DNA of 22,519 nt, from NCBI GenBank assembly GCA_048938295.1, contig JBHLMI010000009.1, forward strand, positions 1 through 22,519. Direction: 5' to 3'. Under the pieces are notes generated by a model. The model did not search any database and was not told the DNA's origin. It saw only the letters and a list, made by a program, of their open reading frames with translations. The translations under genes and the position numbers were made by a program. Positions within the stretch are counted from its first letter, which is position 1; every line of letters begins with the position of its first letter. Shown piece after piece: positions 1 through 22,161 of this stretch. The DNA is from Promethearchaeota archaeon. GTDB lineage: Archaea; Asgardarchaeota; Hermodarchaeia; Hermodarchaeales; Hermodarchaeaceae.

Positions 1-804
1 AACCTGGAGGAAGCAAAACAAGCGCTTCGTGAATCAGTCATTCTACCTTTGCTGCGGCCCGACCTGTTTACCGGAGCAAGGCGTCCGTGGAAAGGCGTAT
101 TAATCTTCGGCCCACCGGGCTGTGGCAAGACCCTGATCGCCAAAGCGGTGGCAAATGAAGCGGGTTGTACCTTCTTTAACGCGGATGCGGCGTCACTCGT
201 TTCGAAGTGGCTGGGTGAATCTGAACGGTTGGTAAAGAATCTCTTTGCATCAGCCCGAAAAGAGCAGCCAGCGATTGTGTTTATGGATGAAGTCGATGCG
301 TTAACCGCTGAACGTGGCGCAGATCAGGTTGGTGGTGAGCGGCGGCTGAAAACTCAGTTCTTGATTGAGATGGATGGGATGAAGAGCAAGAAAGATGATC
401 ATATCGTCGTCTTGGGTGCTACAAACCGTCCGTGGGATCTGGATGCGGCGTTTCGTCGACGCTTTGAGCGACGAATTTTGGTGCCGATTCCTGAATTTGA
501 GGCCAGGGTGCGGATTTTTGAGATTCATACCAAGGGTATTGATTTAGCGCCGGATGTGGACTTTAACTTCCTCGGTGAGAAGACCGATGGATACGCGGGA
601 TCGGATATTGCGCTCATTTGCCGGGAGGCGTCTCTGCAACCCGTTCGTGAATTGGACGCATCGGGTGCCATTCGTGATAAAGAAGTCATGGCGCGGGCGG
701 TGAATCTGCAAGATTTCCTTGAGGCTTTGCAGAATATTCGTTCGGTCGTGTCGCCGGAAGAGCAAGCCCGGTATATTGAATGGGATAACACGCATGGTTC
801 ATAG
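1..804 (+). CDS. vps4: Vps4-family AAA+ ATPase (ESCRT-III disassembly), 5'-truncated by the window edge
   Basis: Frame is open from base 1 (NLEEAKQALRESVILPL...). Walker A GPPGCGKT, Walker B IVFMDEVD, pore loop SKWLGESE, SRH GATNRPWDLDAAFRRRFERRI, Vps4-like C-terminal helix. Adjacent to ESCRT-II/I genes. Confidence 0.9.
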   Translation, partial: NLEEAKQALRESVILPLLRPDLFTGARRPWKGVLIFGPPGCGKTLIAKAVANEAGCTFFNADAASLVSKWLGESERLVKNLFASARKEQPAIVFMDEVDALTAERGADQVGGERRLKTQFLIEMDGMKSKKDDHIVVLGATNRPWDLDAAFRRRFERRILVPIPEFEARVRIFEIHTKGIDLAPDVDFNFLGEKTDGYAGSDIALICREASLQPVRELDASGAIRDKEVMARAVNLQDFLEALQNIRSVVSPEEQARYIEWDNTHGS

Positions 805-815
805 GGGAACAAAAC

Positions 816-1544
816 GTGTCGAAGGAAAAGCCCCGGGAACGGGTGAAAGAGAAGGAGAAAGATGAGCTTCGTGCAGATGTAGAGCTCACGGAAGAAGACT
901 GGTTAGACCTTCTCAAGAAGACCCGTGAACATATGAAAAGCGTGGAAGAAGAAGACGAAACGGCAGTCCTGGTCTTGCCGGTTACCGAAGAGGAAGAAAA
1001 ACAGCTTGAGGAATTGGCCCATCAAGTGGTGGAAAAACTCGGTCGCCGGTTTGTATGGATTGCGAAACGTGGTCGGTACGGGTTCATGTTTGTTATTCCC
1101 ACCTCCGAATCTGATATCGTTCAATGGGGTGCAGAATGGGCGGGGTTTACCGTTGATTATTGCCGTGAAATGCTATTACACATCGTTTCGACGCGCACCC
1201 TAGTCATGTTGGATCCCTTCAATGACATCCGCCCAGATCGGGTAAAGGCCGTGAAGATTATCCTCGACGTACTTGTAAAAGAAGAACTTGGACGCTGGAT
1301 TGATGAAGCGGAAGGGATTGTCCGAATCACCTGGAAAACGGATGATGAATGGGCAAACGAGATTAGACAGTGGGCTTTGAAAACAGGAAGAACTACCTTT
1401 ACACTCTTTAAACTGAAAGAACACCGAAGAGATCTTGCCAGCTTGCCTAAATCCGAGCTACGGATTATTCTTGAGCGCCTTGTTGAGAGGAAACAGGCAA
1501 AATGGTTAGACCGGGAACGCGAAGTAGTCGAAGTCCTCGTCTAA
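816..1544 (+). CDS. vps25: ESCRT-II subunit Vps25 (EAP20) homologue with N-terminal charged extension
   Basis: QWGAEWAGFTVDYCRE resembles Vps25 QLAAWCSLVLSFCR; ITWKTDDEWANEIRQWA resembles IMWRRPEEWGKLIYQWV; TFTLFKL resembles VFTLYEL. Tandem winged-helix layout. GTG start with AGGGG RBS, 11 bp after vps4. Confidence 0.88.
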   Translation: MSKEKPRERVKEKEKDELRADVELTEEDWLDLLKKTREHMKSVEEEDETAVLVLPVTEEEEKQLEELAHQVVEKLGRRFVWIAKRGRYGFMFVIPTSESDIVQWGAEWAGFTVDYCREMLLHIVSTRTLVMLDPFNDIRPDRVKAVKIILDVLVKEELGRWIDEAEGIVRITWKTDDEWANEIRQWALKTGRTTFTLFKLKEHRRDLASLPKSELRIILERLVERKQAKWLDREREVVEVLV

Positions 1545-1562: not shown

Positions 1563-2297
1563 TTATTCTGCGGGATTGAGTCCTGGGAAGAAGTACCGTT
1601 TTCCGTGTACGAAGGACTCGTCGATTTTAGCAGCTCCGACTGATTCGAAGCTTTTCAGGGCAGCGTCGGCTCGTTCTTGCGACCAATTAGTTTGGGTCAT
1701 CACTTCTTCCAGGGTGGTGTAGCCTGACCGACTAGCGATGGAGAGGACTGCAACTTGGTCGTTAGTGAGTTCTCGTGGGACTAGTTCGGCAATCCGGATT
1801 CCTGATGGGAGTTTTCGAATGCCTGGAATGAGTTTTGCACTCGCAAGGTTCTGGATGGCTTTCGCGATATCGACTTGAGAAACACTCGCCCTTCGTTGTT
1901 TATTAACAATTAGAACAATTTCCGCTAGCGTCATGATTCCCCCTGTTGCGTCACGTCGCCGCTTGGCTATGTCAAGAATCTGGAGACCGAGTTCGTCATA
2001 GAAGCGTCCGCGACCGGTTAGGCGTTCCATTAACCCGGGCTTTTCTTTCATGTCTTCGGAGAAGGGAATGCCAGGCATGGTAATACCGAGTTCGTGTGCA
2101 ATAGCGGCAGCCTTCTCACTATATTCGGGTGACACTTCGATAAATTCCCCATAGGTTTGCTCAAAGGCGTCAGCTTTATCGCGAAGTTCTGAAATAGTTT
2201 GGAGCATATGCTCGAGTTCTTTGAGCATGAGCTCGACACGTTTCTTCTTGTAGGCAGCATCCATTTCCATTTGTTTTTCGATTTCCCAAAGTCCCAT
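1563..2297 (-). CDS. vps22: ESCRT-II subunit Vps22/Vps36 (EAP30/SNF8-like)
   Basis: Aligns along its length to SNF8: FYDELGLQILDI vs FYYELGVQIIEV; GGIMTLAEI vs GGLITLEEL; VSQVDIAKAIQNL vs VSQDDLIRAIKKL; VPRELTNDQVAVL vs VPAELNMDHTVVL; C-terminal YFFPGL. GGAGG RBS. Confidence 0.92.
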   Translation of the reverse strand: MGLWEIEKQMEMDAAYKKKRVELMLKELEHMLQTISELRDKADAFEQTYGEFIEVSPEYSEKAAAIAHELGITMPGIPFSEDMKEKPGLMERLTGRGRFYDELGLQILDIAKRRRDATGGIMTLAEIVLIVNKQRRASVSQVDIAKAIQNLASAKLIPGIRKLPSGIRIAELVPRELTNDQVAVLSIASRSGYTTLEEVMTQTNWSQERADAALKSFESVGAAKIDESFVHGKRYFFPGLNPAE

Positions 2298-2310: not shown

Positions 2311-2604
2311 TCATATTTGTCGGATGTAGTTGAGCCAGGTTTCAGCTCGCATCGCGAATCGTCGCGCTTCTAATTCCTCCACATGTTGGGTGAGATTGGC
2401 ACCATATTTTGACAAGAAGTATTCATACCATTCCTGGGCTTCTTGGGTTACCGGGTGATTGGGACCGAGCATTGCTTCCGCAAAGGCAGCGACCACATCT
2501 AAATCTTCAAGAATATATTCAGCATTGATGCGCAGATTCGCTTTATTGATAGCGTTCACCAACCGTTCGCGCATTTCTGCAAAGGAACGCATTGGGTGTA
2601 CCAT
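2311..2604 (-). CDS. Small helical protein; putative stand-alone Vps28 C-terminal-domain paralogue
   Basis: In the operon between vps28 and vps22 (19 and 13 bp gaps). Manual alignment to the C-terminal domain of the adjacent Vps28: [16 protein letters not shown] vs [30 protein letters not shown] vs [14 protein letters not shown]. Confidence 0.65.
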   Translation of the reverse strand: [97 protein letters not shown]

Positions 2605-2623: not shown

Positions 2624-3271
2624 TTATTCATCAGCCGCCATCTCTCGGAGTCGTCGCTTGAAATCATTCAGCCATCGGACCGCTTGAAATTCCAGCTGTT
2701 TGGCTTCTTCTGGTGAAAGGGGTTCCTGAGGGTCGCGGTCTTGCAGCTGGTTCCGCCAATCTTTGAGGGCTATCAATATCCAATATTGTGGTGGAAAGTT
2801 TGGATACTTTGTCAAGAGGATGATGGCATCATCCAGGAGAGGTACAATAAGGCTCATTTTTGCAACGTCGCCGAGTTTGGCGATATCAATGAGTGTGATA
2901 AGATCCGAGACAATATCGGCGGTTTTCGCAGCCATTCGGGCAGAAGTTTGGGGGGCTAGTTTTATAGTTTCTTCTCCTTCAGGAGCCCGTTGTTCAAGTT
3001 GGAGTTTCTCGACCGCGGTGGGAAACCGTTCGACAATCTTTTCATCCTCGACGAACTCGTCCCAACTTTCGCCCTCAGCCTCAAGCATTTGACGTGTCTT
3101 AATGGTATCTCGAACAAGTGATTTGAATTGACGTTTGTATAGTGCGGGTTGAAGATCGCCCTCATCGAACTTCTCAGAGATGCTGTCAAGGGTTGCTATC
3201 GTGCCATAGAGTTCTGCTTCTAATTCAACAACCTTAACCGGTTTGGGTCGTTTTTTTTCACGCACTGCCAT
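2624..3271 (-). CDS. vps28: ESCRT-I subunit Vps28, full length (N-terminal core plus C-terminal four-helix bundle)
   Basis: [27 protein letters not shown] resembles [43 protein letters not shown] resembles ADVVSLFITVMDKLRL; FPPQY..W resembles LPPDF..W. ATG at 3271 follows a GTGAT RBS-like motif (the ORF track extends to GTG 3280). Confidence 0.9.
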   Translation of the reverse strand: [215 protein letters not shown]

Positions 3272-3295
3272 AGCAATCACTTCTGAATGACTGGC

Positions 3296-4114
3296 TTATT
3301 GGTATTTTTCAAGCGCTTTGTCGATTTGGTAGAGCCGTTTCTTGTATCGCTTGTACAACTTGGTGTATTCGGTAGAGGTAATTTCTGCCGCATCAAACTT
3401 CTGTTCAAGATTCTGCAAAAGGTCAGAGATGGCTAGCTTCTCACTCTCAAGCTCAAGCTTCTCTCTTTCTTTTGCATCAGCTGGAAGAATCAGATTATCT
3501 AGTTCTTCTTCGTCTGTTACTTCTCCAGTAGTTAAGGAGCCAGTGTCGATTTGAGCAGACATTCGGGCGAGTTGTTCATCACGGTCCTGTACTTTCTTAG
3601 TAAGGCGTGAGACTTCGCGTTCAAGTTGCTGATAGCGTTGTTGGAGGACTTCCTCTTCTGGAGGCATTGTAACCTTGGGGGCTTCTCGGGTTGCATCTGG
3701 CACAGGAGGTTCGCGGGCGAAAAGGCCCTTAATACTATTGACCACCTGGTAGACGTGATAATGAGGTTGCCATTGAGTGACTATTCGAAGATGAATAGCT
3801 CCAGACTCAGAGTCGACCCGAGGATGCTTGGTTGGAGCAAGCATTCGAGCAACTGGTGGTTGAGCTGGAAAGTTTGCAGGGACAATAATCTCGACGAGAA
3901 ACTCGTCTTTACCCCGTGGTCCACCCTTAATCTTCCCACGCCAACGACGGAGATTGGACTCAACAGGTGCAAAGGTGGGTGCACGACGATACATTAGCTG
4001 GGCTTCGCGTGCAATCGCCAATTCTGTTTGACTTCTCATAGCCTGTGCCATTGAAACACACCATGATATCTGTTTGAATTCTTCCTGTGAGAGCGGGCAT
4101 TTAATCTTTGGCAC
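3296..4114 (-). CDS. vps23: ESCRT-I subunit UEV-Vps23 (TSG101-like): inactive E2 fold, coiled coil, steadiness box
   Basis: E2 fold (FPAQPP, HPRV) with the catalytic Cys replaced by His (GAIHL). Central coiled coil. C-terminal LAISDLLQNLEQKFDAAEITSTEYTKLYKRYKKRLYQI resembles the TSG101 steadiness box. The true start may be ATG 4051. Confidence 0.88.
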   Translation of the reverse strand: MPKIKCPLSQEEFKQISWCVSMAQAMRSQTELAIAREAQLMYRRAPTFAPVESNLRRWRGKIKGGPRGKDEFLVEIIVPANFPAQPPVARMLAPTKHPRVDSESGAIHLRIVTQWQPHYHVYQVVNSIKGLFAREPPVPDATREAPKVTMPPEEEVLQQRYQQLEREVSRLTKKVQDRDEQLARMSAQIDTGSLTTGEVTDEEELDNLILPADAKEREKLELESEKLAISDLLQNLEQKFDAAEITSTEYTKLYKRYKKRLYQIDKALEKYQ

Positions 4115-4134: not shown

Positions 4135-4671
4135 TTATGTTGAACTACTCTTAGTCTTCTTCTTGGACAGCACATTCTTTTTAGGCGTTTCCGCTTTAAC
4201 GGCTTGTCGGACGGTAATCAAGATATTTCCTTGAAGTTCGCGGAGAAATTCTTCAAACCGCGTTTCAAAGAGCGTGACCATTTCCTCAAGTCGCTGCACG
4301 GCCTGGGTCAAGGTGGGAACAAGTTCCTTCTGCAGTTCCCGTAATTCCTTGGAACCTGATTCGGGTTTGCTTTTCGCAACTTTATCCATAGTCTTCTCAA
4401 AGTCCTCAAAACGGTCGACTAACACGCCCAACCGTTCAACTGAAGACTCCGACGCAATGGTATCATCAGCTACCAACTTCTGTAGTGTTTTGACCTCCCG
4501 CAGGAGGGCCCGAATATTCGCCTCCATCTTTAGATTCATCCGTCCAAGGTCAGAATCGAGTAAGTTCAAACCTTTCACTATACGCTTCAGAGACTCAACA
4601 GTAGGGACTAACCCCTTAGGCGTTTTGATGGCTTCAATTTCTATCGCATACTTTGGTGGATCAGCGGACAC
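4135..4671 (-). CDS. Uncharacterised coiled-coil protein, first gene of the ESCRT-I/II operon
   Basis: 178 aa, GTG start, heptad-like helical stretches, Lys-rich C-terminal tail, 20 bp upstream of the UEV-Vps23 ORF. No family recognised. Confidence 0.7.
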   Translation of the reverse strand: MSADPPKYAIEIEAIKTPKGLVPTVESLKRIVKGLNLLDSDLGRMNLKMEANIRALLREVKTLQKLVADDTIASESSVERLGVLVDRFEDFEKTMDKVAKSKPESGSKELRELQKELVPTLTQAVQRLEEMVTLFETRFEEFLRELQGNILITVRQAVKAETPKKNVLSKKKTKSSST

Positions 4672-4871
4672 GGTTCAAGTAACCCCCGAAGCTCTCGTTC
4701 AAGTTTACTCACCTCAGACTTTTAAGCTTTAATTTGGATGGTGAAAAAATTCGAAAAGACTAGGCTTTTACGAAAAATCCAGAATCACACTCAGGGTTGC
4801 CGCATTTCCATAGTTTTTTAAGAACGCATCTAGAAGAAAAGCCCAAGCGGAACCGAATAAGGGGCCTTGCC

Positions 4872-5123
4872 ATGGCACAAGCAGCTGGACGGTTTGTCAT
4901 TTCATCGGTGAAAGAAATTGGCCGATGGGATTGGACCCAATCCACTGACATGTGTTGTGTCTGTCGGCTCCAAATCCGTGATGGTGAACAAATGGTCCAT
5001 TGCCCGCATTGCGGGAATCCTGCCCATTATCGGCATCTAGCAGAATGGGTAAAGATGAAAGGCTCTTGTCCCATCTGTCGGAACCGCATCAACATACGAA
5101 GGTTGAAACCGGTTAGAAAATAG
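4872..5123 (+). CDS. Small RING-finger E3 ligase, Rbx1/Apc11-like N-terminus
   Basis: C-x2-C-x12-C-x2-C-x4-H-x2-H-x3-W-x6-CPxC. First gene of a RING-Ub-E2-E1 cluster. ATG at 4872 preferred over the ORF-track start at 4797. Confidence 0.85.
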   Translation: MAQAAGRFVISSVKEIGRWDWTQSTDMCCVCRLQIRDGEQMVHCPHCGNPAHYRHLAEWVKMKGSCPICRNRINIRRLKPVRK

Positions 5124-5135
5124 TCGGTGGTTAAA

Positions 5136-5372
5136 ATGCGAATAGAAGTTGTACCAGCGATTGGTGGCAGTGACCCCATTGCTCTTGAAGTTGAACCAAA
5201 CACAACGGTTGGAGAGATTCGGAACCGTGTGGCTCAAATGCGCCGGATACCGCCTAACATCGTTATCCTTGCATATCGTGGAGCCCAACTGACCGATGAA
5301 CAGACAATCAAGAGTGTTGGCATCACGCCCCACGATAAACTGTACCTCATTACGAGGACAGAGGGCGGCTAG
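5136..5372 (+). CDS. Eukaryote-type ubiquitin-like modifier ending in Gly-Gly
   Basis: Aligns without gaps to ubiquitin L15-G76 (LEVEP, IPP, L.Y.G.QL.D, L.L..R..GG). About 30% identity by hand. The stop codon follows GG directly. An alternative GTG start lies at 5127. Confidence 0.93.
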   Translation: MRIEVVPAIGGSDPIALEVEPNTTVGEIRNRVAQMRRIPPNIVILAYRGAQLTDEQTIKSVGITPHDKLYLITRTEGG

Positions 5373-5569
5373 GACAAGCAAAACCTAACGGTTTCGATCT
5401 CAGTCGCCCCCCTCTTTTCTCTTCATTACGTAGAATTGGTACCTGATTCATTCTGCGTTTGCCTTGAGCAAATGAAATTTCTACTACTACCAACCGAAAA
5501 GGTATTTACGACAAACGCAATTGGTAAGTGTAATGGGGACCGGCTTATCTAGGCAGAGGCGCTGTCCAC

Positions 5570-6031
5570 ATGTTATCAGAAGACGATTATTGGGCAAGAT
5601 TAGCCCTTGAAGCAAAGAACATGGAAACCGAGGAACCATCGTTCCAGCCAATCCAAGGTGATCTCCGGCGATGGCGCGGATTTATACTGGGCACTGGCAT
5701 CTACGATAATGGCGTCTTTGTTGTACAAATCAATGTTCCCCGATCATTCCCCTATGAACCTCCACAGGTACAATTTATCACTCAGATATGGCATCCCAAT
5801 ATCTACAGGAGCCGAGTCTGTGTAGGGATTTTGGGAAAAGATTGGCTCCCCAGCATGTCACTTACAGGTGTAGTAGAAACGCTTCGAAATCTGTTAAATT
5901 TCCCCAATCCTGACGATCCTTTGAATCAACGGGCATCACGGGAAGCAAAGCAGAACCCAGTGGCCTTTGAACGTACGGCTAGAGATTGGGTTAAACGCTT
6001 TGCTGGTTGGGATCAAATACAACGAGGATGA
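5570..6031 (+). CDS. Ubiquitin-conjugating enzyme E2
   Basis: FPYEPPQVQF, HPNI followed by the active-site Cys (RVCVGIL), W.P..S, LLNFPNPDDPLN: the canonical UBC signature. Confidence 0.95.
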   Translation: MLSEDDYWARLALEAKNMETEEPSFQPIQGDLRRWRGFILGTGIYDNGVFVVQINVPRSFPYEPPQVQFITQIWHPNIYRSRVCVGILGKDWLPSMSLTGVVETLRNLLNFPNPDDPLNQRASREAKQNPVAFERTARDWVKRFAGWDQIQRG

Positions 6032-7071
6032 AATTAGCCATGGATGAGCAGGTCGTCGAACAGAAAAAGAAGGTCCCTGTGTATCATGGCACCGAGAGAT
6101 ATGCTCGTCAATTACTCCTTAATGAATGGAATCAAGAAAAGCTCTCAGAGTCAACTGTTGTTGTAGCCGGTATGGGAGCATTAGGCACAATCATTGCCTT
6201 GGATTTGGTTCTCACTGGAGTCGGCAAGGTCGTATTAATTGACTTTGATACAATCGAATTATCAAATCTAAGTCGTCAATTCTTATATCATGACGAAGAT
6301 GTAGGTAAAGCAAAGGCTGTCGTTGCGGGCCAACGGCTTCGTGAAATGAACCCAGATGTACAGGTACTTGCTTTAAATTGCACAATTCAGGATGTGCGTC
6401 ACTCCATATATGAGGAGGCGGACTTGATTGTTGAGGGGCTTGATACCTTTGAAGCCCGACGATGGCTAAACTCACTTTGCGTCCAGAAGAACAAGGTCCT
6501 CATCCATGGTGGCATGTATGGTTGGTGGGGGAATGTTCAACGTGTAGTTCCCTTCGAAACCGCCTGTTTGGAATGCCAACCACTGGTGCCTGCTGAACGC
6601 CTACAAAAAGCTTGTACACCTCCAGGAAAACGTAGAAAAGTAGAAGAACCACTGCCTAAGTTCCCCGCACTCCTGAGCGTCGCCACCATAATAGCAGGAA
6701 TTCAGTTTCAAGAAGCTTTGAAACAACTTCTAAGGGTAGGATCGCCTCTTGACAATTACCTCTTTTATGACAGTCTTCACCAGCAGTTCACAATTCTGAA
6801 ACTCGCCCGTAACCCCAATTGCTTTTTGTGTAGCGATCGATTCCGCCTGGAAGGGGAAATATACGCAATAGGGCGGAAAGAGACTGTGGCAGAATTGAAA
6901 AACAGATTAATCATGACCTTTGGAATGCAAGATCCCAAGATTATCTTGCGTGGAAAAGTCTTATTTGACGAACAGGTCTTTGGAAAACTCCGGATGAAGG
7001 ACAAAGAACCACTTTTCATCATTGATACTGCATTAGCACAACCGTTGAAACTGCTAGCTGTCTTTAAATAA
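6028..7071 (+). CDS. Ubiquitin-activating enzyme E1 (ThiF/UBA adenylation domain, catalytic Cys, C-terminal ubiquitin-like domain)
   Basis: RYARQ, GMGALG, DFDTIELSNLSRQFLY, GKAKA, Zn-binding CLEC and CFLC, putative catalytic Cys in KACT. Start overlaps the E2 stop codon (ATGA). Confidence 0.93.
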   Translation: MKLAMDEQVVEQKKKVPVYHGTERYARQLLLNEWNQEKLSESTVVVAGMGALGTIIALDLVLTGVGKVVLIDFDTIELSNLSRQFLYHDEDVGKAKAVVAGQRLREMNPDVQVLALNCTIQDVRHSIYEEADLIVEGLDTFEARRWLNSLCVQKNKVLIHGGMYGWWGNVQRVVPFETACLECQPLVPAERLQKACTPPGKRRKVEEPLPKFPALLSVATIIAGIQFQEALKQLLRVGSPLDNYLFYDSLHQQFTILKLARNPNCFLCSDRFRLEGEIYAIGRKETVAELKNRLIMTFGMQDPKIILRGKVLFDEQVFGKLRMKDKEPLFIIDTALAQPLKLLAVFK

Positions 7072-17136: not shown

Positions 17137-20100
17137 TTAGCCGAAAAAGGTATCCAGTCTACGCATTCCTATGGTATCCAACCATTCAATACCTAAGGCA
17201 TCAAGGACCTGTTCAAAGGTACTTTTCACCAAGTCTTTGTATTTTGATACATCAATATCCTGGGCGGTAGCTTGCTCTACAGGCTTCACTCCGTCAGTTG
17301 TTTTGACAAAAGCGATGATATCTCCCGCTGTCACTTCTTTTCCGGCTTTTTGGAGCTGCGTAGCCGCCTTGACATGTTGCGGAGTAGTTTTGGTGTAAGC
17401 GCTGAGATTCTTCGTGAGTTGCACCCGAATGGCAAGATCTTCCACATCAAATTCGCGACGGTCCAACATTGTTAACTTATCCCTGGCAAGTTGGAGGATT
17501 CGTTTTTTCGCAGAGGCAAAACCATCAGGGTCACGAACCTGACTTAGGATATCTATCATCTCCATAAACGCCTTCTGTAAAAATAGGGGTGTATTCCGTT
17601 TCTTCCCCGTCAAGCCCTTAATATCAACCTGACCATCCTTTGACACCCCCAGATAATTCTTCTTCCTACTAGACAAGGCAACATACCGGTACTCCTTTTC
17701 AACATCCAGCTCCACCCTCAGTTCCTTCTCGCTATAATCAATGAGCCGTTTCAACTGATCGTTAGTGGGATTATCCAAAAACAGGCTGTCAGTATCCCCA
17801 TAAAGCACCGTAACTCCCAGCTCTTCCGCTTTCTCGATCGTCTGAGTGATTGCGTATCGACCAAGGGCCGTTATTGACTCCGCTGCAGGAGCGCAGTAGA
17901 GAGGGAAATGCGAAGCCCCAAGAACACCGTAGCTGTTGTGGGTCACAACCCCATTCGTTGTGACAAACCAGCCATTACCAGTCTCTATGTCGAAGACTTT
18001 CTGGGTGTCAGATTCAATTTCAATCGATTTGACTCGAACAAGATTCGTCCCGTTGAAATCCATTAGCCCCTGATATTTCCTTGTATAGTTCTTGCCCTTT
18101 GTTTCCACAATTCGAGTAATATCAGAATCCCTATGGAGCGAAGTAAATCTCCCAAGTGCACTTAGGAGGAAAAGCAAATCCCTAACTAGTTGTTGGCTAG
18201 CCGTACTATATCGGCGACTTCCCTTTAAGGTGAAGTTTCCATCGCCCTTGAAGTAGGATTTCAACAAAACTTCTGCTCGTGTTTTATTCAGAAGCGATAA
18301 GGGCAAACGCTTGTTTACTGCATGGGTTCCACATAAAGTGCATATGACTGAGGAAATCACATTGGAATGAACAGTGATTGTCTTATCGCTATAAAAGACC
18401 GCAGGCCAGCCTAATTGTTTTAGAAGAGAAAGGATTTCAGCAATGTTTTCTGGATTCTTTTCGAAAGATTGAGTTAATGAAAATCTGTTTTGCTGCCCGT
18501 GGCCCTCAGCGACATACCAACCTAATAACTGAAAGAATTCTTCTGAAAGTGGGATGCAGAGATCCTGCCAAAAACCAGGAGAACGATGGCTTCGTGCAAT
18601 CTTTGCAACAAGAAGACCAGGTGAAGTGTTCCGAATAACGTCTCTTTCTTCTTCAGAAAGATCATCCCAATACGCTTTGTATATCTTCTGGACTTTGCTA
18701 TATTCGAACTTTCTGTTGATTATTGTAATTAATTCATTATCTGTTTGCTGCCCTTTTCTGTAGGAGAATTGCTTGTATACACTTCTTTCCATCCCGATCA
18801 ATAGATTTGTGGAATCGATAAGATCAGGGATGAATATGCGGTCTGGAACTGGTTCTGTGAAAGGCATTTGACTGCATAGAAGCAGTTCATCCCCAGTTTT
18901 TAGTTCGCCTGCAGGAATTTCATCAATCCGGAATGTTTTGCCATACCGTCTTCCAGTTTGTGTAGTATAAATCGGAATAACATGGTTAGCCGTACAACGC
19001 AATTGCCTTCCATCACTGAGTGTTATCTTCAGTACCTTGGCTTTTCCGGTTTCTGCGAACCCTTTTATCGGAACAAATATCGGTGTGCCAAAATGCCCAT
19101 TATTCGCATTAGCATTAATTGATAAAACCTCAAGACCTGCCCAACAATCTTTCAGTGACGCAATTTCTCGCTTCTGAACCTGCCCCGTGGGAGTGCGAAT
19201 GATGACTTCCTCATTAGAGGGTAAACACGCGTTGAGAAACACTTTGAGTGCTTGTTCTACGACGCTGAACCAGCTGCGTTGGGCGGGTTCGAGGGTTTTG
19301 TCTTTGGCTCTCGGTTTGAAGTGTTCGACCCGGACGTCGCGTATTAATCCGATGATGAGGCTGGTGATTCCTTCGCGCCTTGTGCACACCCAGTGGGGCG
19401 TGTCGGGAACGAGGTTGTCTTTGCATTCAGGATGATCGCAGCGCACGGTTTCATAGCTGAGATTGTAGGCCTTCATGATACTCGGATAGAGGCTATTTCC
19501 AGTAACAGCAGGTTTACCATTTCTTCGCGCAATAATTGTTCCATTGGGTACAGAAACGCACCATACTTTTCCTTGATAGGGGAGCCTCCAAATCCGTTGT
19601 CTTTGCCCAGAGAATACGTTCTGTCGAAAATAACTTAGAAATGCCCGATAGCTTTCATGGTTTCTGTACACTTTTTCATCGATTTCACAATCATGTATTT
19701 CGTGTTTCACTTGACAACCATAACCCAACCGCAACGCTAATTCCTGAAATTCATCAACGAATCTCCTTGTTATCGAGCTGAATGAGTGGCATTTACCACG
19801 CGACCAACTTCCATCTCCTAGTAGCAAACTATCAAAAAGGAGCTGGAGGTGTTCCTTCTCAAAATTCAAGATTGTTCGAGGAATCCCCTTTCGTCGCCCT
19901 CCCAACTCATGATCTAACCAATTTCTTAGAGCATTAGCAAATTCTGAATCGTTTATGTCAAATCTATGATATTTTCGACCTTGACCACTTGTATACTCTT
20001 TTTCTGTAAATTTGAAACCAAGAAGATTAATCGAATTCCGTATATGTTGAAAGTTCTTTTCTTTAGACTGATGAATTCGTACAGAATATTTGTCGAAGGA

Positions 20101-22161
20101 TCCATCAGTTAAGAGCCACCCCAGGAATGGCAGAAATTGGTCTGGAGTGAAAGTAAACCGTCCAAAATTCACATTATGGGATCTACCAACCCAGTTACCA
20201 AATTGAGGGATTTTGAACCAATACCGTTCACAAAGTTTCTGGGCTTCTTCTAATTCAAGAGAATCACTCCATTCCATACGATCTCTTTTGTTAGTTCTTC
20301 GATTAAACACCATTCTATGATTGGGAGTAACTAATAGATCAACTCCACCGCAGGCGAAGTTGTACAATTCTCCTTGATAATCATACTCATGTAATTTTCC
20401 AAGAGGCTGAAATTCAACCTCGCTAGAGAGTGGATTTACTGTTGCTATTTTTAGAAAAGCCCCATTATTCGAATGAGCCCTAACAGAATCAAGTGAAAGC
20501 CATCCGAGGTTTGTGAGAATTTCAGTATCTTCGGATAGACACGCAAAGTCTACAAGGGTGACGTTGAAGTGGACGCCTTCTTTGGGTTCGACGACGATGG
20601 CGCCCATGTATTTTTTGCCTTTGATGATGGCTTCGGTGACAGCTTCGCCTTTTAGGCTGGCGATTTCGTCTTGGCGTGGGATGAGGTAGTTGCGTTGTCG
20701 GTGGGCGTAGTAGAGGAGGCTGCGGATCCAGTTGGATACAGCGGCGCGAGTGAGGTCGTGCATACCTTGATGGGAGATTCGCATGAGCAGGAGGATGAGG
20801 CTCATGATGAGGTCATCATCAAAGGTTGAGAGGCGCATGGTTAGGCTTGCATCTTGCCAGTTGTATTGGGCGAGAAGATGAGCAGGAATTTTGTTGATTT
20901 CGTCTGGGAGTGGAAGCTTACCTTCTCCGAGGAGGGCTTGGCTGACCGTTTCAAGGCGAACTTCGCTGTACCGATTCCGAAAGGCATAGATTTGAATCGA
21001 TCGATTATGAAAGAATCGATAGAGGTCGATGTGGACGCCATATTCGAGTTCTGCTTCGGGATTGCCGCGGAAGCCGCCTCGTAAGCGAACAGGATTGTCA
21101 GCAGGGGGGATACCGAGTTTCTTTGCTCGATTGACAAGGTATCGAAGGTCAAAGTTATCCCCGTTGAATGTCAACAGAACCGGAGTACGCCATAGAATTC
21201 GAAAGACCATTTCAATGAGAGCTTTCTCATCAGCAAATTTCTCGACGGTCACGGTGTCGGGAAGATTCCGTGCTTCCCGTCCCTGTGAGCCTTGCTCGAG
21301 CAGCAGTACTCGACCAACACCTGTATCATCGACGACTGCCACTGAAATGATAGGTTGTGGGGCTTGCTCCGGATCAGGTATTCGATCGATGAATTCTGAT
21401 TCTACTTCGATATCAATAGCAAGTCGTGGTAACGACGAGGCAGGAGTCAGAAAAAGGGGAAGATACTCTTCAATGAGCTTAGAGAGCTCCTTGTCGTCTT
21501 TGAATAATCCACGAATCTTGGTGGCGTCTTCAGCTGAAAATTCCTGGGGAACGGGAACTAGTCGACCCTTTTGAACCCGATACAGAAGACCTGGTGTCAG
21601 GGCTCTGTCCATTGTATAACATTGTGTGTACCGGATATCTGCCTCCCAGGCATGGTCTCTTCCGATTTTCTCGCGGATGGAATCGGGGCGTCCACCAATT
21701 GCTAAAGGATCTTTTGCGACGATGATGGTGTATTGTTCTTCTGAATCACGCAGCAAATTGTATTTGGATCCTTCCTCGAATTTGAGAAAGCCTGAATGGC
21801 CAACGACATCATTTTGTTGGGAGAGATCCTCGCGAGATAAATCTGTTAGGCAATATGGTAGATGTCCGGTGTTATCCAACCATTCATAGATTTGGCCGCT
21901 AGTAGTATCATAGAGTTTGAGTTTGGCAGCCCCTACGTTTCCTTGGTAGTCAATGTTGATTAGAACAGCTGGAGGTCCCGACTCGGGAGTGTAGGGGTAT
22001 TCAGAGGGACGGATGGGCTGATCTTTACTCTGAGTAACGATCTGGGTTAATAATGAGAGTCGATTCTTCTTTGGCTTCGATTGGTTCTTTGTTTGCGGAT
22101 TAGGTTTTGATGGGCCCATCCATGATGACAGAGTAGATGGCACGCAATATCGCTTCCGCAC
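17137..22161 (-). CDS. polB1: Family B DNA polymerase, PolB1 (Dpo1-like) type, with two inteins (about 880-894 aa after splicing)
   Basis: Exonuclease motifs DIEVE, FNGDNFD and YNWQD; polymerase motifs DFA|SLYPSI, KVFLNA|SYG and YGDTDS; PolB1-type N-terminus (DNTGHLPYCL, KDPLAIGG, AWEADI). The start may be ATG 22119. Confidence 0.95.
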   Translation of the reverse strand: MRKRYCVPSTLSSWMGPSKPNPQTKNQSKPKKNRLSLLTQIVTQSKDQPIRPSEYPYTPESGPPAVLINIDYQGNVGAAKLKLYDTTSGQIYEWLDNTGHLPYCLTDLSREDLSQQNDVVGHSGFLKFEEGSKYNLLRDSEEQYTIIVAKDPLAIGGRPDSIREKIGRDHAWEADIRYTQCYTMDRALTPGLLYRVQKGRLVPVPQEFSAEDATKIRGLFKDDKELSKLIEEYLPLFLTPASSLPRLAIDIEVESEFIDRIPDPEQAPQPIISVAVVDDTGVGRVLLLEQGSQGREARNLPDTVTVEKFADEKALIEMVFRILWRTPVLLTFNGDNFDLRYLVNRAKKLGIPPADNPVRLRGGFRGNPEAELEYGVHIDLYRFFHNRSIQIYAFRNRYSEVRLETVSQALLGEGKLPLPDEINKIPAHLLAQYNWQDASLTMRLSTFDDDLIMSLILLLMRISHQGMHDLTRAAVSNWIRSLLYYAHRQRNYLIPRQDEIASLKGEAVTEAIIKGKKYMGAIVVEPKEGVHFNVTLVDFACLSEDTEILTNLGWLSLDSVRAHSNNGAFLKIATVNPLSSEVEFQPLGKLHEYDYQGELYNFACGGVDLLVTPNHRMVFNRRTNKRDRMEWSDSLELEEAQKLCERYWFKIPQFGNWVGRSHNVNFGRFTFTPDQFLPFLGWLLTDGSFDKYSVRIHQSKEKNFQHIRNSINLLGFKFTEKEYTSGQGRKYHRFDINDSEFANALRNWLDHELGGRRKGIPRTILNFEKEHLQLLFDSLLLGDGSWSRGKCHSFSSITRRFVDEFQELALRLGYGCQVKHEIHDCEIDEKVYRNHESYRAFLSYFRQNVFSGQRQRIWRLPYQGKVWCVSVPNGTIIARRNGKPAVTGNSLYPSIMKAYNLSYETVRCDHPECKDNLVPDTPHWVCTRREGITSLIIGLIRDVRVEHFKPRAKDKTLEPAQRSWFSVVEQALKVFLNACLPSNEEVIIRTPTGQVQKREIASLKDCWAGLEVLSINANANNGHFGTPIFVPIKGFAETGKAKVLKITLSDGRQLRCTANHVIPIYTTQTGRRYGKTFRIDEIPAGELKTGDELLLCSQMPFTEPVPDRIFIPDLIDSTNLLIGMERSVYKQFSYRKGQQTDNELITIINRKFEYSKVQKIYKAYWDDLSEEERDVIRNTSPGLLVAKIARSHRSPGFWQDLCIPLSEEFFQLLGWYVAEGHGQQNRFSLTQSFEKNPENIAEILSLLKQLGWPAVFYSDKTITVHSNVISSVICTLCGTHAVNKRLPLSLLNKTRAEVLLKSYFKGDGNFTLKGSRRYSTASQQLVRDLLFLLSALGRFTSLHRDSDITRIVETKGKNYTRKYQGLMDFNGTNLVRVKSIEIESDTQKVFDIETGNGWFVTTNGVVTHNSYGVLGASHFPLYCAPAAESITALGRYAITQTIEKAEELGVTVLYGDTDSLFLDNPTNDQLKRLIDYSEKELRVELDVEKEYRYVALSSRKKNYLGVSKDGQVDIKGLTGKKRNTPLFLQKAFMEMIDILSQVRDPDGFASAKKRILQLARDKLTMLDRREFDVEDLAIRVQLTKNLSAYTKTTPQHVKAATQLQKAGKEVTAGDIIAFVKTTDGVKPVEQATAQDIDVSKYKDLVKSTFEQVLDALGIEWLDTIGMRRLDTFFG
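17935..19227 (-). mobile_element. Intein 2 (431 aa) with LAGLIDADG homing endonuclease, in polymerase motif B
   Basis: Begins CLPSNEEVI; block B TANH; LGWYVAEGH and YFKGDGN; block F VFDIET; ends THN followed by Ser +1 (SYG). Confidence 0.93.
19495..20541 (-). mobile_element. Intein 1 (349 aa) with LAGLIDADG homing endonuclease, in polymerase motif A
   Basis: Begins CLSEDTEIL; block B TPNH; LGWLLTDGS and LLLGDGS; ends TGN followed by Ser +1 (SLYPS). Confidence 0.92.

Follow-up and report, generated by a model that had tools for sequence, protein, structure and literature searches.

Cullin-RING ligases and the anaphase-promoting complex/cyclosome (APC/C) are eukaryotic hallmarks, and to our knowledge neither has a prokaryotic antecedent. 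Whether one might be found in archaea is a question raised by a 22,519-nucleotide stretch of DNA from a Promethearchaeota archaeon of the Asgard class Hermodarchaeia (contig JBHLMI010000009.1; hereafter the window, meaning the whole stretch analysed), in which a gene at positions 4872–5123 encodes a small RING protein. A sequence-only reading had likened this protein to Rbx1 and Apc11, including their cullin-binding N-terminal strand, and had taken the likeness to suggest a proto-cullin or some other scaffold partner. Our follow-up leads to a different assignment. The protein is, with little doubt, an srfp-type small RING E3 ligase of the Asgard ubiquitin-ESCRT cluster, and as the srfp family is already known, it is an ordinary member of it. 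The conserved arm that precedes its RING core probably serves as a partner-docking element, and on balance we lean towards an overall explanation in which this srfp-type E3 docks a cluster-encoded partner through its arm, most likely the coiled-coil protein encoded next door.

The open reading frame (ORF) at 4872–5123 on the forward strand is a real gene with an ATG start and an 83-residue product. Eight orthologues of 82–83 residues, with 61–88% identity, all begin at the same methionine, and the ATG at 4872 was preferred for that reason; the same evidence ruled out a TTG start at 4797, which would give a product of 108 residues. The product has eight conserved zinc ligands in total (C28, C31, C44, C47, H52, H55, C66 and C69), which confirm the C4-H2-C2 order read earlier, and the absence of an Rbx1-type third-zinc insert is likewise borne out by the mere 12 residues that separate C31 from C44. 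C44 and C47 form a C-x2-C knuckle, and N49 occupies the His-4 position. The ligand columns are invariant in the family alignment together with V30, W59, P67 and R70, of which the first three were assigned by homology as E2-contact positions and the last as the linchpin.

Profile and structure comparisons place this core among generic RING domains. The Pfam family zf-RING_2 matched residues 26–70 over its full profile (1–44) with 28.4 bits against a gathering cut-off of 27.3, in agreement with the earlier identification as a RING E3, while Prok-RING_1 stayed below its cut-off of 29.1 at 25.7 bits and was matched over profile positions 5–31 of 54 only. By language-model distance, its closest neighbours are clusters of archaeal zf-RING_2 proteins. 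In sequence searches of the PDB, the best match was rice EL5 (E 1.7e-6), to whose RING-H2 domain residues 27–72 align without gaps, and RNF165/Arkadia (about 1e-5), RNF4 and RNF13 also came ahead of Rbx. AlphaFold2 modelled the protein with a RING/U-box core at a predicted local distance difference test (pLDDT) score of 85.9. Foldseek with this model returned TRIM37, IFT-A, Rbx1 and others, all within one order of magnitude in E, and VIA-align ranked the Prp19 U-box and TRIM37 at the top (Z 9.1–9.4) with other RINGs also scoring high; its best 50 rows held no Rbx1 chain, an absence that carries no evidential weight. The RING-H2 proteins of the zf-RING_2 family (EL5, Arkadia/RNF165, RNF38) provide the best sequence matches and have the same C-x4-H-x2-C/H-x3-W-x6-CP spacing. 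They differ from the Asgard protein in that N49 replaces the ligand-4 histidine, C44 provides the C-x2-C, and ligand 6 is His rather than Cys; they also have no counterpart of its conserved N-terminal arm.

An archaeal relative has been tested biochemically. The srfp of Caldiarchaeum subterraneum shows E3 activity with only E1, E2 and ubiquitin, requires I30, W58 and R69 for that activity as judged by mutation, and has a shifted ligand 3/4 with an extra cysteine, ‘C3B’ (Hennell James et al. 2017, PMC5654768). Like it, the Asgard protein is about 80 residues long with a single RING, is encoded with ubiquitin, E2 and E1, and has RING-H2-like ligands with an extra cysteine upstream of ligand 3 (C44/C47), with V30, W59 and R70 in the places of I30, W58 and R69. 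Unlike it, the Asgard copy is part of a cluster linked to ESCRT and has no Rpn11 gene close by, and the ubiquitin here is already encoded ending in GG. Closer still in context is a Helarchaeial RING E3 described in a preprint (bioRxiv 10.1101/2023.07.25.550441), which needs no more than E1 and E2 for activity and mono-ubiquitylates UEV-Vps23 at K201 without a scaffold. It belongs to the same cluster, comprising UEV-Vps23, ubiquitin, the RING E3 and the uncharacterised helical asCOG005522. The preprint reports this cluster for Hermodarchaeia too. Judging from homology to these orthologues, the present protein would work as a stand-alone RING E3, its core binding the ubiquitin-charged E2 of its own operon through V30, W59 and P67, and its linchpin R70 activating that charged E2.

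The N-terminal arm, 22 residues long, is predicted to lie outside the RING fold. An alignment of 27 sequences, drawn from 12 or more GTDB families and from metagenomic representatives, shows that a motif of the form [RK]-F-h-I..h..I-G-x-W-D-W is kept in at least 12 families of Asgard archaea. W19 occurs in 27/27 sequences and equals the zinc ligands in its invariance; G17 occurs in 24/27, W21 in 23/27 (with two F and two L), R7 in 20/27 (with three K) and F8 in 19/27, and position 10 is I or V in 25/27. The RF...WxW strand singled out in the earlier reading is thus strongly kept, and conservation to this degree implies a binding partner. AlphaFold2 models the arm as coil in the monomer, with pLDDT values of 68–81, and four paralogous RINGs of the same genome (L006–L009) share the core and lack the arm. 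The arm has already been described: the preprint noticed a conserved ‘N-loop’ of residues 1–19 in the Helarchaeial E3 and modelled it as a loop (bioRxiv 10.1101/2023.07.25.550441). As a separate observation, two larger RING proteins, P0028 (400 residues) and P0145 (586 residues), have the sequence ..ETG[SI]W[EA]FDGR[FY]V.. immediately before the same core; there, the arm's W-x-F and R-F-V elements stand in reverse order, behind a helical-looking domain.

The likeness to Rbx1 is easily reproduced at the level of alignment. Residues 7–35 (RFVISSVKEIGRWDWTQSTDMCCVCRLQI) align gaplessly to RBX1 residues 21–49, the peptide quoted in the original comparison being identical at 29/29 positions to that segment in PDB chains, and the two have in common the R-F, hydrophobics at four positions, W-x-W and the distances of 12 and 7 residues that separate these elements from the first cysteine. 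More generally, Rbx1, Rbx2 and Apc11 are also small RING proteins with an arm of about 20 residues ahead of the first cysteine; this arm starts basic and then hydrophobic, has its hydrophobic positions in register, ends in W-x-W 6–7 residues before C-x-[IV]-C, and is joined to a core with a RING-H2-type C-terminal half. Read as kinship, these features would make the protein a true relative or forerunner of Rbx1/Apc11, with an N-terminal strand that completes a beta-sheet in a proto-cullin or an equivalent scaffold, a reading that we regard as very unlikely. The further C-terminal match claimed for it, C-x4-H-x2-H-x3-W-x6-CP, is present in the protein; it is, however, not specific to Rbx1/Apc11, because EL5 aligns over the same spacing without gaps and the spacing is thus generic to RING-H2. 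Profile searches point away from kinship as well: zf-rbx1 (PF12678) reached 8.8 bits over residues 25–70 (E 7.3) against a cut-off of 31, zf-ANAPC11 (PF12861) had no match at E<=10 in the genome of the organism, and the best E values across 23 family members were 2.7e-10 for zf-RING_2 and 3.4e-5 for zf-rbx1. As the profiles favour other RING families, the proposed kinship with Rbx1/Apc11 was not upheld. The PDB search agrees, with Rbx2 at 5e-3 and Rbx1 at 0.03–0.1, and generic RING-H2 domains better by 3–4 orders of magnitude; in favour of kinship, Rbx1 and Rbx2 give the only alignments among the PDB matches listed that extend to query residues 5–9, and Rbx1 chains are among the top Foldseek matches, with the longest alignments.

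Comparisons confined to the arm yield a similarly mixed picture. Using a position-specific scoring matrix built from archaeal arm residues 7–22, with the flanks of 136 other RINGs as the null (mean -18.5, standard deviation 5.3, maximum -2.7), we obtained +0.9 bits for Rbx1, -5.4 for Apc11 and -8.1 for Rbx2, each in the expected register. The likeness to Rbx1 is real, in that its flank outscores all 136 others, but it is only marginally significant because the log-odds are about zero; composition-preserving shuffles gave p = 0.013–0.04. When the PDB was searched with the N-terminal 30 residues alone, no Rbx1, Rbx2 or Apc11 appeared at E<=10 (chance matches to IgE came at E 1.3), and the 27-sequence arm profile likewise found none of the three at that threshold, returning three chance matches; in the control search, the Rbx1 29-mer alone retrieved Rbx2 at 2e-8 and Apc11 at 4.5e-4. 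An hhalign comparison of the arm with three N-terminal peptides, those of Apc11 and Rbx2 having been verified as equivalent to the Rbx1 29-mer, reproduced the register with P 0.0012 for a single comparison and a probability of 7.5%. Its scores of 18.9–20.1 fall inside the null from other RINGs (mean 13.9, maximum 25.9), which the shared C-x-V-C-x-L-x-I block dominates, so that this test does not discriminate. In eukaryotes, the strand has the form [KR]-h-x-h-K-K-W-N-A-V-A-x-W-x-W and inserts into the C-terminal domain of cullin or Apc2; its K-K-W-N-A signature does not occur in the archaeal arm, and none of Rbx1, Rbx2 and Apc11 has the G17 and D20 that mark the archaeal sequences. Beyond the arm, the Asgard RING differs from all three in having no third zinc site or insert, in its C4H2C2 order and in failing both of their Pfam models. 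The scaffold-free activity of the orthologous E3s, in the Caldiarchaeum study (PMC5654768) and in the preprint (bioRxiv 10.1101/2023.07.25.550441), also argues against kinship. On sequence grounds, a functional analogy, in which a beta-prone docking arm precedes a RING, best accounts for the resemblance between the arm and the Rbx1/Apc11 strand, homology being not demonstrated; the arm would then not be a cullin strand. Our literature search found no paper connecting the arm to Rbx1, and the text of the preprint contains 0 occurrences of Rbx1 or srfp.

A scaffold of the eukaryotic kind was also looked for directly. The window holds no cullin, as the earlier reading had noted, and neither does the genome as a whole (91.6% complete), in which a sequence-level search for Cullin (PF00888) gave no match at E<=1; the same kind of search placed 0/400 Asgard genomes above the cut-off. 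Three partial Cullin matches below threshold (18–20 bits, E about 5e-4 to 7e-4 per genome) were seen in other Asgard genomes, at L051 (G031:C255:843–1040), L052 (G362:C18:8906–9280) and L053 (G293:C40:2739–2891). One of them has stop codons within the match, and all three probably reflect chance helical-repeat similarity. A single 12-bit match to Cullin_Nedd8 (PF10557) in the organism's own genome was set aside as noise, control genomes giving the same. Of the proposed proto-cullin or other scaffold partner, then, the cullin was not found, but a candidate partner gene does adjoin the RING gene. The Asgard arm tracks this coiled-coil gene, whereas for the cullin or Apc2 partner of its eukaryotic counterparts no equivalent was found.

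The coiled-coil protein (4135–4671) begins with the motif h-x-h-x-A-I-x-T-P-x-G-x-V-P-T (here I.I.AI.TP.G.VPT), of which T-P-x-G-x-V is invariant, and AlphaFold2 models a beta-hairpin at residues 14–23 (strands 14–17 and 20–23) followed by two long helices. Homologues lie beside distant srfp orthologues (BLASTP E 2e-9 and 5e-17; profile 7e-26), and members of the family were noted at L015:209–976, L016:5444–5866, L017:1287–1664, L018:1385–1708 and L050:893–1030. We ran both profiles, srfp and coiled-coil, on 400 Asgard genomes and found the coiled-coil family in 80/400, nearly always adjoining an arm-bearing small RING gene in a divergent, tandem or overlapping-tandem arrangement. The tally covers 65 genomes for which a full-length srfp is listed, and in 47 of them the coiled-coil gene adjoins srfp. 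It is divergent and at most about 600 bp away in 35 genomes, and lies in tandem about 50 bp downstream in 12 (all those of family f12 listed, plus G057); four further genomes have it on the srfp contig at a distance of 1.1–1.6 kb, nine have it on a different contig (four at contig ends), and five have no coiled-coil match at E<=1e-6. Two further metagenomic contigs show the order E1-srfp-coiled-coil with 4-nt overlaps. Across families f7, f9, f19 and f20, the coiled-coil gene was found in 0/192 genomes, and the one genome checked from each has RING-core matches only (profile positions 21–79), inside larger ORFs. Its occurrence in three arrangements with the RING gene makes the coiled-coil gene a candidate partner, and on this gene linkage we put the protein forward, tentatively, as the partner of the arm. 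The family is probably asCOG005522 of the 2023 preprint, to judge from size and context; the accessible part of that source lists asCOG005522 as an uncharacterised cluster member and reports no tight pairing with the RING gene.

Several observations weigh against this choice of partner. At L017, the coiled-coil gene sits with a UEV gene, 3.4 kb from srfp, and in families f4 and f13 the coiled-coil gene and srfp are on separate contigs; these cases imply that the coiled-coil protein could be a mere part of ESCRT-I, encoded in an operon that happens to border the ubiquitin one. Families f24 and f25 carry coiled-coil-like genes and almost no srfp, and the shared ancestry of related genomes makes the adjacency counts look stronger than they are. 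The preprint, moreover, assigns the arm to UEV binding, albeit with affinities in the sub-millimolar to millimolar range (bioRxiv 10.1101/2023.07.25.550441). Structure comparisons added little on either side: Foldseek with the coiled-coil model returned nothing below E 4.6 and did not confirm a Vps37/Mvb12 idea, the family profile matched generic coiled coils only in the PDB, where the similarity to 6V1V given in the preprint was not confirmed, and co-folding of the RING protein with coiled-coil residues 1–125, using alignments for both chains, scored 0.03, which gives no answer and speaks neither for nor against.

The preprint assignment can be extended into a full alternative, in which the arm is the ‘N-loop’ touching the UEV domain of UEV-Vps23 (3296–4114) for substrate recognition only, and the coiled-coil gene is unrelated; we hold this to be unlikely, though the most serious of the alternatives. 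It proceeds from weak surface plasmon resonance data, on which the preprint proposes that the N-loop assists UEV binding: the dissociation constant (KD) of the Helarchaeial UEV for the full-length RING E3 was 2.6e-4 M, and binding weakened once residues 1–19 were deleted (bioRxiv 10.1101/2023.07.25.550441). That UEV-Vps23 is itself ubiquitylated by the cascade, at the lysine named above, and is encoded in the same cluster here also fits. The affinities are nevertheless very low, the effect is modest and comes from a preprint, and the text is internally inconsistent about its size, stating a 3.17-fold change where the quoted KD values differ about 30-fold. Moreover, the srfp–coiled-coil pairing persists on short contigs (E1-srfp-coiled-coil) with no visible UEV gene, and srfp lies nearer to the coiled-coil gene than to UEV-Vps23 in 47/65 genomes. 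Gene linkage points to the coiled-coil neighbour as the candidate partner and the preprint to the UEV domain; a protein encoded in the cluster is, in either case, the most likely one for the arm to dock.

It is also conceivable, if improbable, that the arm has no external partner and either folds back on the RING core as a stabilising element or drives homodimerisation as in RING1B/BMI1, RNF4 and Rad18. Many RING E3s dimerise via flanking segments, Foldseek and VIA-align list RING1B/BMI1 and Rad18 with alignments that reach model residues 15–18, and the pLDDT of the arm suggests some preferred placement. However, the monomer model shows the arm free of secondary structure, paralogues that share the RING core manage without it, and its presence follows a specific neighbouring gene.

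Under the favoured explanation, the arm would dock a cluster-encoded protein, most likely the co-inherited coiled-coil protein encoded head-to-head with it. The beta-hairpin of that protein could pair with the arm and so tie the ligase to ESCRT-I through UEV-Vps23, a known substrate; for this step, gene linkage is the guide. In a stronger form, which we consider quite improbable, arm and hairpin would form an intermolecular beta-sheet and the two proteins a two-subunit scaffold-RING ligase, either a forerunner or an independent invention of Rbx1–cullin and Apc11–Apc2 docking; were it a forerunner, the Rbx1/Apc11 strand would have descended from the arm.

The setting of the gene is that of an Asgard ubiquitin-ESCRT cluster (Table 1), in which a RING-Ub-E2-E1 operon (RING, ubiquitin, E2, E1; 4872–7071), with the RING gene first, runs divergently from an ESCRT-I/II operon. 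The head-to-head coiled-coil/RING layout is repeated in 35 other genomes. The same RING-Ub-E2-E1 order is found at locus L016 and on the P0015 contig, and at L017 with two extra genes interleaved. Ubiquitin starts 4 nt past the RING stop codon, at a GTG at 5127 or an ATG at 5136, which suggests coupled translation; its stop codon directly behind the Gly-Gly makes a processing protease unnecessary. The ubiquitin-like domain of E1 is a weak Pfam ubiquitin match (residues 287–333). Taken from a TTG at 6007, the E1 ORF shares its first 25 nt (6007–6031) with the end of E2; translation of E1 may really begin further downstream. A very long ORF of 1674 residues (17137–22161, reverse strand) occupies the far end of the window.

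Table 1. Features of the ubiquitin-ESCRT cluster in the window
Feature	Position	Strand	Evidence
Vps4	1–804	+	
ESCRT-II gene	816–1544	+	
EAP30	1563–2297	-	
97-aa ORF	2311–2604	-	
Vps28	2624–3280	-	
UEV-Vps23 (ESCRT-I)	3296–4114	-	UQ_con, UEV, Vps23_core matches
178-aa coiled-coil protein	4135–4671	-	no Pfam family
Divergent intergenic region (200 bp) between coiled-coil/ESCRT-I operon and RING-Ub-E2-E1 operon	4672–4871		
Small RING finger E3 gene (srfp type), 83 aa + TAG stop	4872–5123	+	zf-RING_2 28.4 bits, orthologues
Conserved N-terminal arm, residues R7–T22, RFVISSVKEIGRWDWT	4890–4937	+	27-sequence conservation
RING cross-brace core, C28 to R70	4953–5081	+	invariant columns, EL5 alignment
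Ubiquitin, ends Gly-Gly	5127–5372	+	Pfam ubiquitin E 3.7e-12
E2 ubiquitin-conjugating enzyme	5570–6031	+	UQ_con E 1.1e-32
E1 (ThiF type), C-terminal ubiquitin-like domain	6007–7071	+	ThiF E 2.4e-62

Elsewhere in the genome, at least five further RING genes were noted at loci L006–L011 (C8:54750–54935, C41:101455–101757, C5:58882–59019, C25:20135–20290 and C50:78807–78965), with a core of the form C-x2-C...CP-x-C...H-x2-H...CP-x-C in ORFs of 103–565 residues. The ORF on C41 contains two tandem RING copies and lies at a contig end.

Were an Asgard RING protein truly to carry a docking strand of the Rbx1 type, the origin of cullin-RING ligases and the APC/C would move to before eukaryogenesis. 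The tests made here do not support such a strand, and the resemblance survives only as a weak sequence likeness. The lead that emerges is of another kind: the arm-bearing RING is co-inherited with an uncharacterised coiled-coil protein, in three gene arrangements and in many Asgard families, and this pairing suggests a two-component ligase or adaptor at the interface between ubiquitin and ESCRT.

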